A DNA stretch of 38,303 nucleotides, taken from assembly GCA_965369655.1 (NCBI GenBank), contig CBDUQR010000029.1, positions 1-38,303 on the forward strand. The letters run 5' to 3'. The notes beneath the pieces are model-generated. The model was not told the DNA's origin. It ran no database searches and was given only the letters and a program-made list of their open reading frames with translations. The first letter of the stretch is position 1. Every line of letters begins with the position of its first letter. Positions 1,391-12,494 of the stretch are shown here, one piece after another. The position numbers were made by a program, and so were the translations under genes. This stretch comes from an uncultured bacterium. GTDB lineage: Bacteria; Zixibacteria; MSB-5A5; JAABVY01; JAHJOQ01.

Positions 1391-1535
1391 TGAACTCCTC
1401 CAATTCATCATCAGGTTCGATTTGAATAATGGTCGAAGATATGAATTCTCAGATCGAATGCAACAATAAATCTTCTGTTGAATCGATGTCGGATTGAACG
1501 TTCCGGCAGGATTCGAGTCTGAAGATTGTCGGTAC

Positions 1536-1574
1536 AAGAAAAGTCCCCATCCACCTGCCGCTGCGGATGGGGAC
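1536..1574 (-). terminator. Intrinsic terminator closing a short sigma54-driven transcript
   Basis: Minus strand reads GTCCCCATCCGC-agcggcag-GTGGATGGGGAC-TTTTCTT: a 12-bp stem (one G-U pair) plus U-tract. Confidence 0.85.
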
Positions 1575-1663
1575 CGCCCAAAACCATAGTACTGTTAAAG
1601 CAAGAGATGCTCAACTCTCCTGTTCGGAGCCAACCAAAGGCTTGCTTTGACGTATATGCCGAC
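1536..1663 (-). ncRNA. Candidate sigma54-dependent small RNA (~125 nt)
   Basis: Bounded by a consensus -24/-12 promoter and a strong terminator. Internal helix AAAGCAAG/CTTGCTTT (1641-1648 with 1597-1604) encloses hairpin CTCC-GAACA-GGAG. No credible ORF. The 5' end is estimated from promoter geometry. Confidence 0.6.
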
Positions 1664-1672
1664 AACAGACTA

Positions 1673-1690
1673 TTGCAACGATCATGCCAA
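1673..1690 (-). promoter_or_regulatory. Sigma54 (RpoN) -24/-12 promoter
   Basis: Minus strand TTGGCATGATCGTTGCAA has exact GG-N10-GC spacing and lies ~230 bp downstream of a sigma54 activator gene. An IHF-like core CAA-N4-TTG sits at 1726-1735. Confidence 0.8.
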
Positions 1691-1833
1691 CGCACGTTTC
1701 GCAGCCAATCTGTGATTGTCGCTCGCAAGTGATTGTATTGTGTGGGGTTACGTGATTCAGCCGATAATTCGGATTTCGTGGTCTTGGGCTGAAATATCAC
1801 TGAGAGCGCAGATCCTGCTTCCGGTCAACAGCA

Positions 1834-1862
1834 AGAGCCGGTTACGTTCTGTAACCGGCTCT
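1834..1862. terminator. Perfect inverted repeat: terminator of the activator gene or an upstream activator site
   Basis: AGAGCCGGTTAC-gttct-GTAACCGGCTCT with 12-bp arms and only a weak U-tract; ~60 bp after the activator stop and ~145-170 bp upstream of the sigma54 promoter. Confidence 0.55.
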
Positions 1863-1920
1863 GCCACTTGCGATTATCCGAGTGCGCAGGACTCGGGGGG
1901 AGATAATCATATTTCGCGCA

Positions 1921-4152
1921 TCAAATCTTCAACCGCTTGATCTTCGACCGAAGTGTTGCTTCGGGTATCTGAAGCAGTTTTGCTGCCTTTCGTATCACGC
2001 CACTGGTCGAACGAAGCGCCTGCTGAATCCTTTCTCTCTCAAAAGTCGCAACCTGTCCTGCCAGACCTGACGGATAATGGAGTTGCGTCTCTTGCGAAGG
2101 ATCGCCGAGTTTGGCGTCGAGAGTTTCGATTACTGCCGCATGATCGCCTTCGCATTCGAGCGCCATGAGTTGAACCTCGTTTCGGAGTTCCCGGACATTC
2201 CCGGGCCACCCGTAGCTGATAATGTTCCGGATTCTATTCTCATTGAACAAGCCCTTCTGACCCCGAATATCCATGCCATTCTCCGCCATGAAGAACTTCA
2301 TCAGAGCTACGAGGTCCTCTTGTCTCTGCCTGAGAGGCGGGAGATCGAGTGTCATCACAGCGATCCTGAAATAGAGATCGCGGCGGAACTGCCCTGTCTC
2401 AATGTTCTCCTCCAGGTCGCGATTGGTCGCGGTGATCAGCCTGAAGTTTACAGGCTGGGCAACGGTATCGCCGACCCTGACCACTTTCTTTTCCTCAAGA
2501 CATCCGAGCAACTTCGCCTGTAGTGCGATTGGCAGGTCACCGATTTCGTTGAGAAACAGGGTCCCGCCATCCGATGCCGTGATCAGACCTTCTTTATTCT
2601 CGAGGGCGTTTGTGAACGCTCCCTTGACATGACCGAAGAGTTCGCTTTCGGCAAGCTCCTTCGGTATTGCCGAGCAATTGACTGCCACAAAGCGCCCGCC
2701 TGAACGGTTGGACGAATTGTGAATGAATTTCGCAAGGAGGTCTTTTCCGGTTCCGGTCTCGCCCGTAATGAGTATCGGAATGTCCGAGTCTTTGCAGTGA
2801 TCGACAATTCGAAGAATCGACCGCATCTGCTTGTTCGCGGTGATGATTTGTACGGAATCGCCCGACGCGCCGGTCACGGCGTACACATGTCGGTTCGGTC
2901 GATCTGGAACGGTCGGCTTCGGTTCTCTGATCAGATCGGCTTCGAGTCCGATCGAGCCGAGGAGGTCGGTCGCCATGACACGATAGAAGACGCGAGTGCT
3001 ATTGTCGAGCCATGTCAACTGCGCAGCCTGCTCGTAGCAGTCGGCCAGTTCATACGTGGCTTTGAGTTGCTGGAGGAGAGCAATCGCATATTCTATCTGC
3101 TGTCTGCTGTCGGTCGATGCTCCTTTGCGGTCCGAGATCAGCGCGAGCAGTTTCGTGCTTTCGGCGATCTCCAGCTTTTCATCGATCCGTTCGGCGACGT
3201 GGAGAGCCTTGCTGGCGGCATCCTCAGCCTCATCGTATCTTCGCATCCGGTAGAGAATGCCCGCTTTGATTCTTTCCGACTGGCTGATCAGGTCGCCGTC
3301 CGAGGCGATATCGCGCCCCTGCTCGATGGCGGATTGAATCGATGCGAGAGCCTCATCGAGACTGCCGGTTGCTGCCTGAAGTTCGGCTCGGTACTCGAAA
3401 TAGATGGCCAGTTCGCGCTTGAGATCGTGTTCTCGTATTATGGAGAGTGCGTTTCTGAGATTTCGGCGGGCCGAATCATAGTTGGCAAGCCGTATTTCGA
3501 CCAGCGCGAGCGACAGGAAAGCTTTCGAGAGACTGACGTCATTCCCGAGTTTTCCGTGTTTCTCGATCGATATCGAGAGCTTGTCCACGGCATAATTGAA
3601 TCGGCCCTGGCGCAGTGCGATTCGTCCTATGTTGCCGCTGATCCTGGCGAGACGCAATTCATCGCCAAGTTCATCTGCGTAATGCCAGGCTTCGTCGAGA
3701 AGCCTGCGCGCCTCATCGTAGTCTGCTCTGAGATAGCGGATACCGGCAATCCTGTTGAGGGTGTCTATGACGCCCTCGACATCTCCCATGCGTCTGAAAC
3801 TGGCGGCCACATCGCGATACTCGCGGTCGCTCCTGTCTGTTTCGCCCAGATATTGATGAGCTCTCGCGAGTTCAGTCTGTATTCTGGCCAGCAATGCATG
3901 ATCAGACGTCTGGCGGACCAACTCGTACGCCTCGGCGGCAATCCTGAGCGCGTCCCGGTAGTCACCGGTCTGGTTCAGGAATGTCGCTTTGTGAAGCAGG
4001 AACTCCGGTGAGGTCGACACCTCCTCCCGGAACTCCGATTCGAGTTGCCAAAGCTTATCCGCCGCCTTCCTGAGGTCGCGGCGAGCGCAGTATCGCTCGA
4101 ATTCCGCAAGCTCACCGGCAAGTTTTGGGCTGTCTGTCTTTGGCACTTGCAT
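1921..4152 (-). CDS. TPR-repeat sigma54-dependent enhancer-binding protein (TPR-AAA+-Fis HTH), 743 aa
   Basis: N-terminal ~400 aa of TPR-like helical repeats; Walker A GETGTGKD; 'ESELFGHVKGAFTNA'; Walker B variant LFLNEI; 'WPGNVREL'; C-terminal HTH 'IRKAAKLLQIPEATLRSKI'. Start ATG 4152 overlaps the upstream stop (TGATG). Confidence 0.93.
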   Translation of the reverse strand: MQVPKTDSPKLAGELAEFERYCARRDLRKAADKLWQLESEFREEVSTSPEFLLHKATFLNQTGDYRDALRIAAEAYELVRQTSDHALLARIQTELARAHQYLGETDRSDREYRDVAASFRRMGDVEGVIDTLNRIAGIRYLRADYDEARRLLDEAWHYADELGDELRLARISGNIGRIALRQGRFNYAVDKLSISIEKHGKLGNDVSLSKAFLSLALVEIRLANYDSARRNLRNALSIIREHDLKRELAIYFEYRAELQAATGSLDEALASIQSAIEQGRDIASDGDLISQSERIKAGILYRMRRYDEAEDAASKALHVAERIDEKLEIAESTKLLALISDRKGASTDSRQQIEYAIALLQQLKATYELADCYEQAAQLTWLDNSTRVFYRVMATDLLGSIGLEADLIREPKPTVPDRPNRHVYAVTGASGDSVQIITANKQMRSILRIVDHCKDSDIPILITGETGTGKDLLAKFIHNSSNRSGGRFVAVNCSAIPKELAESELFGHVKGAFTNALENKEGLITASDGGTLFLNEIGDLPIALQAKLLGCLEEKKVVRVGDTVAQPVNFRLITATNRDLEENIETGQFRRDLYFRIAVMTLDLPPLRQRQEDLVALMKFFMAENGMDIRGQKGLFNENRIRNIISYGWPGNVRELRNEVQLMALECEGDHAAVIETLDAKLGDPSQETQLHYPSGLAGQVATFERERIQQALRSTSGVIRKAAKLLQIPEATLRSKIKRLKI

Positions 4153-4493
4153 CACTTGGTCAGCTTTCCTGGCACATTCCTGGTTCCCACCGTGCGTGGT
4201 TGTTCGATCTTGATCGTGTACGTCTTGATGGTGGTGAACCAGAACCTGAAGATTGACCACTGGATGAGCTTCCCGCCGGTCGGGATGTCTGGATAGATCA
4301 TGGTGTTTCCGGGATCGTCGTCGTTGTTGTCATCCCACGGATCACCCTCGATGACTCCTCCGCCCGGATCATCGCCCGGAGGCGGATCTGTAATTACATC
4401 CTGTCCAAGTTTGTTTCTGGCGCTCAGAGAGGATACGCTCCCGATCGCGAAGATCAGGATCACAGCTAAAATGAGAAGTTTTCTGAGTTTCAT
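4152..4493 (-). CDS. Small secreted protein / putative signalling pro-peptide (113 aa)
   Basis: AAGGAG RBS; Sec signal peptide (MKLRKLLILAVILIFAIGSVSSLSA); low-complexity Asp/Pro/Gly core (DPPPGDDPGGG, EGDPWDDNNDDDPG); Trp/Phe-rich segment and basic tail. Its stop overlaps the activator start. Confidence 0.8.
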   Translation of the reverse strand: MKLRKLLILAVILIFAIGSVSSLSARNKLGQDVITDPPPGDDPGGGVIEGDPWDDNNDDDPGNTMIYPDIPTGGKLIQWSIFRFWFTTIKTYTIKIEQPRTVGTRNVPGKLTK

Positions 4494-4626
4494 CGCGCTC
4501 TCCTTGATATGATAAATGACATTGCTACCTACTCATAGATTTAGACGGATAGCACATATAATTCGTTCAATGCCAGGATTTGGCGATGAAGCAAAAGAAG
4601 GGGATGGTACGTCAGTTACCATTAAT

Positions 4627-4655
4627 ATGGTAGCACCTAATACGCGGAAAGTCAA
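4627..4655 (-). promoter_or_regulatory. Sigma70-type promoter for the peptide-activator operon
   Basis: Minus strand TTGACT-17 nt-TACCAT with an extended -10 TG; the palindrome TCAAG-N6-CTTGA (4652-4667) overlaps the -35. Confidence 0.65.
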
Positions 4656-6542: not shown

Positions 6543-7880
6543 CTATCTATGATCAAATAATAACTCCATGTACTGAGCCGAGATTGACTCAATCCCGAAT
6601 CGCTTGCCGAATTCATCGGCTGTTTTTTGACCCGTTAATGCTGGGCATCGGGAGATGAAATCTTTTAAGCGACTCGCATGCTTTTTCGGAGAAGTCTCGC
6701 CGTCGTCGAAGATATTCAGCAGTGCATGATAATCCCTAAGGAACTCTGTGGAGCTGTCGTTATGGATTCCGGCAATGTTGAGAATCGGTTTTCCGAGCGA
6801 TGCGTATTCGACTATTTTGCTCGGGAGTTGGTACGGGCTGTCATTGCCGATGTTTACAAGCAGCCCGGCCTTTTGCATTTCGCTGAACACTTTTTTCCTG
6901 CTGACCGGACCATGCAGTACCAACCTGCCCTGTTTCCGCAGGTCGGCGAAAGGCTCGAAGCACTGTTGGCAATCGTTGACGGCTCCATAGAAGTGCAGAT
7001 CGAGTTTGATATCGGGATGCTCATCGATAAACGTGCTGAACAGCTTCAGGAGAAACGCAGGGTTGCGAATTTTCCTGTACAGCGTGCCGACATACACGGC
7101 TCGAAATCTCCCATCATGTGTGTAATCTTCGGGTTGAAGCCCCGGGTCGGGCGGCGAGATCACCGGATGTATCACGCTGATTCTGCCCGATGACCGCTGG
7201 AACAGTTCGGCATACTTGTCCCTTGTCATCGCGTTGGTAACAGTGATATGCGCAGCCCTCTTGAAGACTTTTGATTCGAGCAGGTGATTCAGCCTCCTGT
7301 AAATCCTGTGATTGTTTGGCGGAGTTGACTCCTCGAAACTGAATGGATCGCCGATGTCGACAAGCCATCGCATGTTCGGATAACGGTGACTGAGCGCCAG
7401 CCCTGCCAGATGCGATGTATACGGATCCGACACTGTGACGTATAACAGTATCTTTTCTCGCATCACGAGCCGGGATGATTCCCGTATCGCCGAGTGAGTC
7501 CAGAGACATGAACTGTCGGGCCAGTAGACTTTCTTCCAGCTCATATCGTGGATGAATCTGATTATCCTGCCGACAGAACTTCTGATCCGGGAGGAAGTCG
7601 GTTTGTTGACGTGCTCAATCTGGCTCGATGCCGCGCGACTGCTCCTGCTGATGAGCCTAACTCTGAGGCGCTCGATTATACTCCCGCCGGTGCGAAACAC
7701 TCTCACACCGTTCACTGTCTCCCTTCGAGCGAGACCGGGAGACCAGGACGAGACTACGCAAACATTCACGCCGTCCTTTGCCCACTGTTCCGCAATAGCG
7801 GTCCATCTGATTGCTCTCGGATTCAGAAACGGTGCGTAGAAGTAACAAATAATTAGAATCGAACGCTTACTGTTCTGCAC
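6543..7880 (-). CDS. Glycosyltransferase, GT-B fold (GT4-like)
   Basis: 'ILIICYFYAP', 'VYVGTLY', 'LHGPVSR', 'PSKIVEYASLGKPIL'. Likely GTG start at 7880 after AGGAAGG. Confidence 0.85.
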   Translation of the reverse strand: MQNSKRSILIICYFYAPFLNPRAIRWTAIAEQWAKDGVNVCVVSSWSPGLARRETVNGVRVFRTGGSIIERLRVRLISRSSRAASSQIEHVNKPTSSRIRSSVGRIIRFIHDMSWKKVYWPDSSCLWTHSAIRESSRLVMREKILLYVTVSDPYTSHLAGLALSHRYPNMRWLVDIGDPFSFEESTPPNNHRIYRRLNHLLESKVFKRAAHITVTNAMTRDKYAELFQRSSGRISVIHPVISPPDPGLQPEDYTHDGRFRAVYVGTLYRKIRNPAFLLKLFSTFIDEHPDIKLDLHFYGAVNDCQQCFEPFADLRKQGRLVLHGPVSRKKVFSEMQKAGLLVNIGNDSPYQLPSKIVEYASLGKPILNIAGIHNDSSTEFLRDYHALLNIFDDGETSPKKHASRLKDFISRCPALTGQKTADEFGKRFGIESISAQYMELLFDHR

Positions 7881-11117: not shown

Positions 11118-11255
11118 GATTTTCGTTGCTCTCCAATGTCGAAACGGTTATCCTTACAGAGGACAGGCAAAAACATCTTTGACATTTCATCGCTGAGTCC
11201 GTCTGAATATATGACATGACAAATGGTGCCATGTCTAAAGCGAGGAGGAATGGCC

Positions 11256-12494
11256 ATGAGAAAGACAATATCCATTGTAATTGCGATCGGGGTAGTTTTG
11301 CTGGCATTGAGTTGTTCTGAGACAATAACGCCACCCAATGATCCCCCCGACACTCCACCGCTTGGACTTTCACTCAATGACAAACAACTCGCCCAAAGCA
11401 GCAACGAGTTCGGGTTCAAGCTTTTCAAGAATATTGCCGGTGATGACGGTGGCTCGAATATTCTGATCTCACCGCTATCGATCTCGATGGCGCTTGGGAT
11501 GACGCTGAATGGCGCGGCAGGGGAAACGCTGGAGGCGATGCGGGAAACTCTCGAATTCTCAGGGATGACAGAAGATGAGATCAACAAGAGTTATCGCAAT
11601 TTGATTGATTTCCTCGGGTCGCTTGACCCGAAGGTGAAGCTCGAAATAGCGAACTCTATCTGGGCAAGACTCGAATTCGTTGTCGAGCAGGAATTTCTGG
11701 ACATCAATCAAAGCTTCTTTGATGCCGAGGTCCGTCAACTCGATTTCGGTGATCCGTCAACTGTTGATACGATCAACGCCTGGGTCAGCGAAAATACAAA
11801 TGGAAAAATCGAAAGCATCATAGAGTCCATCTCGCGCGATGTGGTGATGTATCTGATCAACGCCGTTTACTTCAATGCAGAGTGGAGTGATCCGTTTGAC
11901 ACAAACTCGACGATCAACGCCGCGTTTTACAAGATGGACGGCACGATTACCGACTGCAAACTGATGCGAGACTGGATGGATGTTCCTCACGTGTTCAATG
12001 ATGAATTGAAGGCTGTGGAGTTGACTTACGGTGATGGTACATTCGGAATGGTGTTGATTCTGCCGAATCACGGCGTCGAGCTCTCTGAGATCATTGAACA
12101 ACTCGACGACGAATGGTGGAGTTCACTTGTCGATTTGATGGTTGACCGGAACCTCGACATCTCTCTGCCACGATTTAAGTTCGAGTTCGAGGATCAGCTA
12201 AAAGACAATCTTTCATCATTGGGGATGGATATTGCATTCGATGCTGGGCGAGCCGATTTCACAAAGATCAATAGAAATGGTGGACTATTCATCAGTCGGG
12301 TGAAACACAAAACTTTTATCCGTGCAAATGAATTTGGCACCGAAGCAGCAGCGGTGACATTAGTCGAGATTAGCCGTTCTTCCCTGCCGGATCCTGATTT
12401 TCTGGCAAACAGACCATTCCTGTTTGCCATTCGCGAACGCCAGTCTGGATCGATACTGTTTATCGGGCAAGTGACAGATCCAGGGTTTGAGTAA
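11256..12494 (+). CDS. Serpin (serine protease inhibitor), lipoprotein
   Basis: 'NILISPLSISMALGM', 'LINAVYFNAEW', hinge 'EFGTEAAAVT', 'FLANRPFLFAIRE...ILFIGQV'; lipobox LALSC; GGAGG RBS. Confidence 0.95.
   Translation: MRKTISIVIAIGVVLLALSCSETITPPNDPPDTPPLGLSLNDKQLAQSSNEFGFKLFKNIAGDDGGSNILISPLSISMALGMTLNGAAGETLEAMRETLEFSGMTEDEINKSYRNLIDFLGSLDPKVKLEIANSIWARLEFVVEQEFLDINQSFFDAEVRQLDFGDPSTVDTINAWVSENTNGKIESIIESISRDVVMYLINAVYFNAEWSDPFDTNSTINAAFYKMDGTITDCKLMRDWMDVPHVFNDELKAVELTYGDGTFGMVLILPNHGVELSEIIEQLDDEWWSSLVDLMVDRNLDISLPRFKFEFEDQLKDNLSSLGMDIAFDAGRADFTKINRNGGLFISRVKHKTFIRANEFGTEAAAVTLVEISRSSLPDPDFLANRPFLFAIRERQSGSILFIGQVTDPGFE

Follow-up and report, generated by a model that had tools for sequence, protein, structure and literature searches.

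The locus described here lies on the minus strand, at positions 1,537 to 4,655, of a 38,303-nucleotide stretch of DNA from an uncultured marine-sediment bacterium of the Zixibacteria (contig CBDUQR010000029.1 of assembly GCA_965369655.1, positions 1 to 38,303, hereafter the window). It carries a gene for a small, predicted exported protein, a gene for a sigma-54 activator with a tetratricopeptide repeat (TPR) sensor, and a single small RNA (sRNA). Together they form a cassette that looks like an undescribed signalling circuit, with a putative signal path from the exported protein to the RNA. That the cassette is real and conserved is, in our view, practically certain. A preliminary description had listed nine minus-strand elements at this locus, and eight of them were found where it had placed them. 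It had also assigned the DNA to a candidate-phylum bacterium, in agreement with the nearest named relative, a metagenome-assembled genome titled Candidatus Zixiibacteriota with 85% identity. The assembly comprises 2.99 Mb and is 99.5% complete, with one copy of rpoN (C1:66124-66600) and 19 strong sigma-54 activator genes. The orthologous comparison covered 12 loci of the same order, with relatives from 11 genomes (5 + 6) of the two nearest families. A search for related loci among genome contigs gave two loci, one of them a true relative. In relatives, 40 genomes were searched with the TPR region, and a wider set of 62 TPR activator loci from 41 genomes was fetched. Of these, 58 were parsed and four were dropped for having no activator open reading frame (ORF) by the filter.

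The two genes follow a sigma-70-type promoter, TTGACT-17-TG-TACCAT (4627..4655, minus strand). Since four sigma-70-like sites were found between 800 and 5300 against 3.2 expected, a match to this promoter type is uninformative on its own. The promoter proposed in the preliminary description was confirmed by alignment, in which CTTGAC, TAnnAT and the invariant TAACTGAC were aligned in 12 of 12 orthologous loci, TAACTGAC being identical in all of them. The invariant GTAACTGAC just past the -10 element (4611..4619, minus strand) is a candidate start-site region or operator. The small ORF has a Shine-Dalgarno sequence, AAGGAG, at 4505-4500 on the minus strand. Its coding part runs from 4493 to 4155 and its TGA stop from 4154 to 4152, so that, as first described, the stop has one base in common with the ATG of the activator gene at 4152. 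Across the orthologous loci, the gap between the two genes ranged from -4 to +20 nt.

The small ORF (4152..4493, minus strand) encodes a protein of 113 amino acids (aa) with a predicted signal peptide, an acidic stretch containing EGDPWDDNN (W53), an aromatic/hydrophobic patch and a basic tail. The signal peptide had been noted before, and a hydrophobic N-terminus was found again. In the alignment, the predicted export signal consisted of a basic N-terminus, an uncharged run of 13-24 residues and AxA-like sites recognised by eye. A homologue of the small ORF was found directly upstream of the activator gene in 11 of 11 same-order genomes. The only invariant residues of the aligned proteins were M1, P52 and W53. 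The Trp-acidic motif, (D/H)PW(D/Q)D, is the sole invariant feature of a protein that is otherwise mostly of low complexity. A profile search of 1.84 billion protein representatives gave 63 matches at E <= 1e-3, with lengths of 83-153 aa. All 63 contained [DH]PW, as HPWQD (31), HPWGG (16), DPWQD (7) or DPWDD (5) in the main. The named members are annotated as "hypothetical protein", and the organism, where given, is Zixibacteria. No family for the small protein was found in Pfam or NCBIfam.

The preliminary description had suggested that homologous activators should also be checked for an upstream secreted ORF. Among the 58 TPR plus sigma-54 activator loci, 53 had an upstream same-strand small ORF with a hydrophobic N-terminus, as that description had anticipated. 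A strict form of the motif, in which Trp has two or more Asp/Glu no further than three residues away, was present at 42 of the 58 loci, and a further four had HPW or YPW with one acidic neighbour.

The second gene (1921..4152, minus strand) encodes a receiver-less bacterial enhancer-binding protein of 743 aa. Orthologues of 740-745 aa were found in all 11 genomes of the two nearest families, with E values from 1e-76 to 1e-236. The domain order TPR-AAA+-Fis read from the letters was borne out by Pfam, which gave TPR_12 four times, Sigma54_activat, AAA_lid_14 and HTH_8. The TPR sensor covers residues 53-382 by Pfam (3007..3996; E 3.8e-20), with repeats probably extending from about 45 to 400. 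It is followed by the AAA+ sigma-54 interaction domain (PF00158, residues 436-602, 2347..2847; E 8.9e-64) and by the Fis-type helix-turn-helix (HTH) domain HTH_8, which binds DNA (residues 701-741, 1930..2052; E 2.3e-10), all on the minus strand. In NCBIfam, the protein matched generic activator models only, all below their cut-offs. Walker A is GETGTGKD. The loop L1 that contacts sigma-54 is GAFTNA, a variant of GAFTGA that keeps F and T; across the order it occurs as GAFTNA, GSFTNA, GAYTNA or GSYTNA. With PF00158, this variant GAFTGA-type loop, a Fis-type HTH, rpoN in the genome and a -24/-12 promoter with an upstream box, the protein has the features expected of a bacterial enhancer-binding protein. 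Walker B (2548-2562) departs from the canonical hhhhDE, reading LFLNE with Asn for the usual Asp.

When the TPR profile was compared with solved structures, the best similarities were to LGN/Pins (E 1e-24) and the kinesin light chain KLC1 (2e-15), and weaker ones were to NprR (9e-8) and the Rap phosphatases (6e-7). As ranges, the E values were 1e-24 to 1e-15 for LGN and kinesin light chain and 1e-7 to 6e-6 for NprR and Rap. The sensor is a TPR_12-type solenoid and no specific relative of the RRNPP family of peptide receptors. Across 58 TPR domains, the best-kept polar residues were N133 (86%), N174 (98%), Y254 (95%), R294 (100%) and K/R334. In class A, the paralogue class of this locus, S214 is also conserved as a further residue of this ladder, between N174 and Y254. 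The Asn/Tyr/Arg ladder has a spacing of 40-41 residues, which corresponds to one position of successive repeats.

Past the activator stop lies a hairpin with 11-bp arms, GAGCCGGTTAC and GTAACCGGCTC (1835..1861, minus strand), which probably terminates the operon. It is the inverted repeat of the preliminary description, recovered at 1861-1835, and a hairpin with changed arm sequences was seen by eye at the same place in the six loci of family f1. It is followed by a candidate enhancer (upstream activating sequence) box, GCAGGATCTGCG (1807..1818, minus strand), about 125 nt upstream of the -24 element. The pattern GCA-N5-TGCG is not rare by itself, with four occurrences in the window against 6.5 expected. 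What counts is its fixed place, and it was found 95-103 nt past the activator stop in 12 of 12 loci. In the whole genome, 65 relaxed matches were found, and only the box of this locus was followed by a strong -24/-12 match.

The sigma-54 promoter, TGGCATgatcgTTGCA (1674..1689, minus strand), was present as first described. Its core, GGCA-N6-TTGC, does not vary among the 12 loci. With 0.06 matches to TGGCAY-N5-TTGCW expected in the window, TGGCATgatcgTTGCA was the sole one found, and 6 of 100 shuffles gave one match or more. Strict -24/-12 matches numbered 12 in the 2.99-Mb genome. The one listed element that was not upheld is the IHF-like core; of the 12 orthologous spacers, none contained the consensus WATCAR-N4-TTR and one contained a relaxed form of it. 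Of the 12 strict promoters of the genome, six have the AAA+ domain of a same-strand activator 550-1400 nt upstream of them, and one of these six precedes a type IV pilin-like gene. Another strict match, on contig C8 (7870-8045, minus strand), has no adjacent activator gene; an ORF-free stretch of about 170 nt and a terminator come after it, and this candidate RNA had no match in Rfam.

Downstream of the sigma-54 promoter, about 128 nt contain no credible ORF. From a start placed about 10 nt past the -12 element to the U run of the terminator, the sRNA would occupy 1537..1665 (minus strand). The structured non-coding sequence of about 125 nt that had been described was found again, with a predicted fold of -50.5 kcal/mol (z -3.7) that none of 200 shuffles equalled. 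No match to it was found in Rfam 15 at E <= 1. In its 5' half the RNA is different in each of the two families; a 3' domain is common to all 12 loci. This domain consists of the invariant single-stranded motif GGUUUUGGGC (1576..1585, minus strand), which reads GGYUUUGGGC across the order, and an intrinsic terminator with a conserved GGCRG loop (1542..1575, minus strand). The terminator was as strong as had been claimed, with 13 pairs and a U run at 1575-1542. In its stem, eight of nine pairs changed on both sides with 94.9% of cells paired, which none of 500 shuffles equalled. With a covariance model of the 3' domain, each of the 12 same-order genomes gave a single match, always at the activator locus (E 1.5e-9 or better); the 139 further genomes of the class gave only five weak matches, spread over four genomes (E 0.004-0.01).

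We then considered whether the sigma-54 transcript could be the leader of the downstream gene, with the hairpin acting as an attenuator. A gene for an FKBP isomerase lipoprotein does follow on the same strand in all six f1 genomes, as this explanation would have it. However, family f2 keeps the RNA in front of another gene, for a small membrane protein, and the FKBP gene has a conserved promoter-like element of its own, TTGCAT...TATCTTCG, between the terminator and its start codon (window 1394-1540; six f1 spacers, by eye). The strength and covariation of the terminator also speak against attenuation, and a leader function is very unlikely. Because the downstream gene differs between families and the FKBP gene has its own promoter, the transcript is better explained as an independent sRNA. 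An element similar to that of the FKBP gene, GTATCTTCG, precedes other genes as well. In a search for sRNA targets, the complement of the invariant motif lay near three candidate start sites only, none of them compelling. Feedback pairing of the sRNA with the leader of its own operon was also tried and rejected, as the seed beat 95% of random windows in only 1 of 12 genomes; long-duplex energies for this pair were uninformative.

The gene pairs were duplicated together, giving three classes that are all represented in the genome analysed here. Class A, with an activator of about 745 aa, is represented by the present locus, and its motif lies mid-protein, about 25-37 residues past the signal peptide. 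In class B, with an activator of about 980 aa and a copy on contig C37, the motif lies 4-18 residues past the hydrophobic segment, as in APG-FEHPWDDD. In class C, with an activator of about 720 aa and a copy on contig C17, the motif lies 4-5 residues from the C-terminus, as in DEDPWDELR. TPR, AAA+ and HTH domains were found by Pfam in both paralogues of the genome. The core motifs of its three pairs are GDPWDD, EHPWDD and EDPWDE.

The class C cassette (L133, C17:7300-10800, minus strand) encodes a 125-aa, predicted exported protein ending in DEDPWDELR and a 719-aa TPR activator. Also present are CTGCGTAA-type boxes in clusters, TGGCATtaagaTTGCA at position 7808, and an RNA of about 150 nt with a terminator. 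Class C loci in general have their own repeated CTGCGTAA-type boxes, a -24/-12 promoter and this second conserved terminated RNA, for which no Rfam match was found. The class B cassette (L134, C37:16500-20400) encodes a 118-aa, predicted exported protein and a 983-aa TPR activator. Here FEHPWDDD begins four residues past the hydrophobic segment, at the cleavage site predicted by eye. No sigma-54 promoter was found near it; there is a palindrome, CGCAGAAACTGCG, 250 nt upstream, and the CTTGAC promoter contains a TCTGCG half-site. Likewise, no convincing downstream sigma-54 promoter was found at class B loci, with one doubtful match in 20. A sigma-54 sRNA of its own thus follows two of the three pair types, A and C. 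The expectation that such activators would be followed by a GG-N10-GC promoter and a terminator held for the 12 orthologues and for most loci of two paralogue classes, and failed for class B. The GCA-N5-TGCG box also occurs upstream of the CTTGAC promoter at 14 of 18 class B loci and at six of six class A operons of family f2. The boxes at class B operons suggest auto- or cross-regulation among the cassettes.

Walker B also differs between the classes. Asn in LFLNE or FYLNE was found in 16 of 19 class A proteins and in class C paralogues including that on contig C17. DE was kept in 19 of 20 class B proteins by motif scan, the 20th (L100) lying outside the scan, and in the other activators of the genome that the scan caught (eight loci of L002-L020). 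The two classes with Asn are the two with a downstream sRNA.

These findings can be combined into a model of the cassette. From the housekeeping-type promoter, the two coupled genes would give the Sec-exported protein of about 110 aa and the cytoplasmic sigma-54 activator, in which a TPR solenoid stands where a receiver domain would be. The activator would bind the GCA-N5-TGCG box just past its own gene and, with sigma-54 RNA polymerase, drive transcription of the terminated sRNA of about 128 nt, the only recognisable direct target. This link between activator and sRNA is, in our judgement, likely. The concave groove of the TPR domain may in turn read the Trp-acidic motif of the partner protein, presented either as a fragment re-imported after export or as the precursor not yet exported. 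Binding of the ligand would switch assembly of the ATPase ring, and the level of the sRNA would then be a readout of the fate or amount of the exported protein. For the cassette as a signalling device of this kind, in which the groove reads the motif and the activator drives the sRNA, we see an even chance. Direct contact between groove and motif, taken by itself, is conceivable at slightly below even chances. The broadest version is tentative and rather doubtful: that, in Zixibacteria, gene-encoded, exported Trp-acidic proteins or peptides are the cognate ligands of cytoplasmic TPR sigma-54 activators, with three channels per genome distinguished by motif placement and two of them having a dedicated sRNA as their only direct output. 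The circuit would then sense peptides or proteins in a diderm and combine the receptor logic of RRNPP systems with the output logic of LuxO-Qrr. No earlier family of sigma-54 activators would have been known to be gated through a short linear motif.

Several observations weigh against the preferred model. The motif is predicted to be extracytoplasmic and the TPR domain cytoplasmic, so that contact between them would require a further step. The nearly identical core motifs of the three pairs create a cross-talk problem for any model with specific ligands. Five of the 58 loci have no upstream ORF by the filter, and at 11 the putatively exported upstream ORF lacks the strict motif. TPR_12-type repeats in general resemble those of kinesin light chain and LGN, and their consensus includes the conserved Asn. 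On the output side, the box could belong to another regulator, since it is common and also lies upstream of class B operons, and the Asn in Walker B replaces an Asp in a position where Asn weakens ATP handling in other AAA+ proteins. The difference in compartment and the 11 loci without the strict motif would both agree with there being no direct contact at all. The small protein would then act in the envelope, its motif being structural or read by another component, and the TPR domain, of a type that binds many kinds of partners, would sense a different ligand; the genes would be linked by co-expression or by an indirect pathway. We consider this possible, although unlikely on balance, as the pairs were duplicated together three times and stay adjacent across class-level divergence. 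In addition, no third gene is conserved, with upstream and downstream neighbours differing between families, and the conserved polar ladder of the TPR domain suits an acidic aromatic peptide.

If contact does occur, the motif may reach the groove in either of two main ways, with a small share of the odds left to other routes of direct contact. In quorum sensing of the RRNPP type, the exported pro-peptide would be cut to a Trp-acidic peptide that accumulates with cell density, is re-imported and bound by the TPR domain, and switches the sRNA. The locus roughly shows four of the five signature features listed in PMC10075063, with a small protein that is predicted to be exported, paired with a TPR receptor and encoded by an adjacent gene. 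The motif lies a few residues from the predicted signal-peptidase site in class B and at the C-terminus in class C, and since it is thus near a protein end, one cut would release a short peptide. An OPT-family oligopeptide transporter was found in 14 of 15 genomes searched. A box upstream of the OPT gene was considered as a link to peptide uptake and rejected, because it was present here and, imperfectly, in one other of the 15 genomes, and is not conserved. On the other hand, a diderm envelope would have to be crossed twice, and no PTR2 transporter was found. The only SBP_bac_5 protein of the genome lies in an operon with a HAMP histidine kinase and an NtrC-type activator (L135, C20:18266-23044) without genes of an ABC importer of the Opp kind around it, and looks like a solute-binding sensor. 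Known pherotype systems diversify their peptide; the core motif here varies very little, both among the three pairs of a genome and over a whole class, so that private quorum-sensing channels fit poorly. With a receptor beyond the size range of the family and only weak similarity to NprR and Rap as well, we regard quorum sensing of this type as unlikely. Alternatively, the TPR domain would bind the motif of the unexported precursor, slow Sec export would lead to a build-up of precursor that switches the activator, and the sRNA would adjust the synthesis of envelope proteins. Translational coupling would then make both partners at the same place and time, no import step would be necessary, and a common core motif would be harmless if all paralogues read one condition. 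Such a monitor of export would also agree with the frequent link of sigma-54 regulons to the cell exterior noted in PMC3162934. The idea is purely inferential, however, and the class-specific position of the motif, at either the C-terminus or the mature N-terminus, points to a role for a processed end. No TPR activator is known to us to work like this, and we consider the explanation improbable.

The preferred reading, a signalling cassette in which the TPR groove reads the motif of its partner, would be of interest for several reasons. Phosphorylation, small molecules and cytoplasmic partner proteins are the inputs known to switch sigma-54 activators. To these, a TPR sensor with a dedicated, exported and ligand-like protein would, if true, add a new class. 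Gene-encoded peptide signalling has been described almost only in Bacillota, and the cassette would be a candidate for it in a diderm. In the full-text literature searched, there was no TPR sigma-54 activator with an exported partner and nothing joining Zixibacteria with sigma-54. PMC6299228 describes only a separate TPR gene beside an activator, and PMC12316311 had no content on sRNAs or Zixibacteria. New here are the three classes that differ in where the motif lies, a second family of sRNAs, the enhancer box together with its copies at operon promoters, the Asn in Walker B, and the conserved ladder of the TPR groove with its Trp-acidic parallel. Two new sRNA families and a new small-protein family are thereby defined in a phylum without genetics. 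As the two genes, box, promoter and RNA span only about 3.1 kb, the cassette can be rebuilt in E. coli, and the hypothesis is testable though the host is uncultivated. Elsewhere in the window, a full-length bacterial serpin (PF00079, E 6.6e-106) is encoded among housekeeping genes at 11223-12494 on the plus strand.

Four groups of known systems resemble parts of the cassette. The preliminary description had proposed that the locus joins an RRNPP-like TPR receptor to a sigma-54 sRNA output. The three-part arrangement was found to be conserved, whereas membership in RRNPP in the strict sense did not hold, on grounds of size, TPR similarity and the nearly uniform core motif. As in Rap-Phr, NprR-NprX, PlcR-PapR and AimR-AimP of Bacillota and phages, a gene for a small protein with Sec-type export, here predicted, lies beside or overlaps that of a cytoplasmic TPR regulator, here by one base and with TPR_12 recognised in the receptor, and a genome has several paralogous pairs. 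Published lengths are 250-500 aa for receptors and 10-100 aa for pro-peptides, with validated pro-peptides of 21-50 aa (PMC10075063); the receptor here has 743 aa and the small protein 113 aa (83-153 aa across its family). The receptors of those systems are HTH or phosphatase proteins, in contrast to the AAA+ sigma-54 output found here, and the small gene of the cassette is upstream. Its core motif is conserved and not diversified, the TPR similarity is weak and generic, and the host is a diderm of a candidate phylum. To judge by its figure legend, PMC10075063 tabulates candidates from Firmicutes and viruses.

On the side of the input, the closest parallel for recognition of a Trp-acidic motif is found in kinesin light chain. 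Its positively charged groove binds extended Trp-acidic or Tyr-acidic peptides through Asn pairs and salt bridges of Arg/Lys, one cargo motif being TNLEWDDSAI of SKIP (PMC6214655). Both sensors are TPR_12-type solenoids, as reflected in the KLC1 match. In both cases the partner has a Trp flanked by Asp/Glu in a disordered stretch, here EGDPWDDNN, and the Asn/Arg/Lys groove of kinesin light chain may have its counterpart in the best-conserved polar positions of the present TPR domains, from N133 to K/R334. Kinesin light chain is a eukaryotic motor adaptor with which no evolutionary link is claimed, and Asn is partly a signature of the repeat family; the parallel is suggestive. PspA-PspF, NifL-NifA and HrpV-HrpS are sigma-54 activators controlled by a partner protein encoded next to them. 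With these, the cassette would have in common a receiver-less activator and a partner from the neighbouring gene. Those partners are cytoplasmic or at the inner membrane face and act on AAA+ or GAF domains, whereas in the cassette a TPR array serves as sensor for a partner that, by prediction, is exported, if the two do interact.

On the side of the output, LuxO-Qrr of Vibrio, CbrB-CrcZ of Pseudomonas and GlrR-GlmY of enterobacteria are sigma-54 sRNAs next to their activators. They are similar to the present locus in having a -24/-12 promoter for a non-coding RNA beside the activator gene, with the sRNA as main output. Their activators are response regulators fed by kinases, in contrast to the receiver-less protein with a TPR sensor found here. 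The RNA also differs from the Qrr, CrcZ and GlmY families in lacking an Rfam match, and no Hfq gene was found in this 99.5%-complete genome. By analogy with these systems, the circuit would be RRNPP-like on its input side and similar to LuxO-Qrr or CbrB-CrcZ on its output side, while being a member of neither group.

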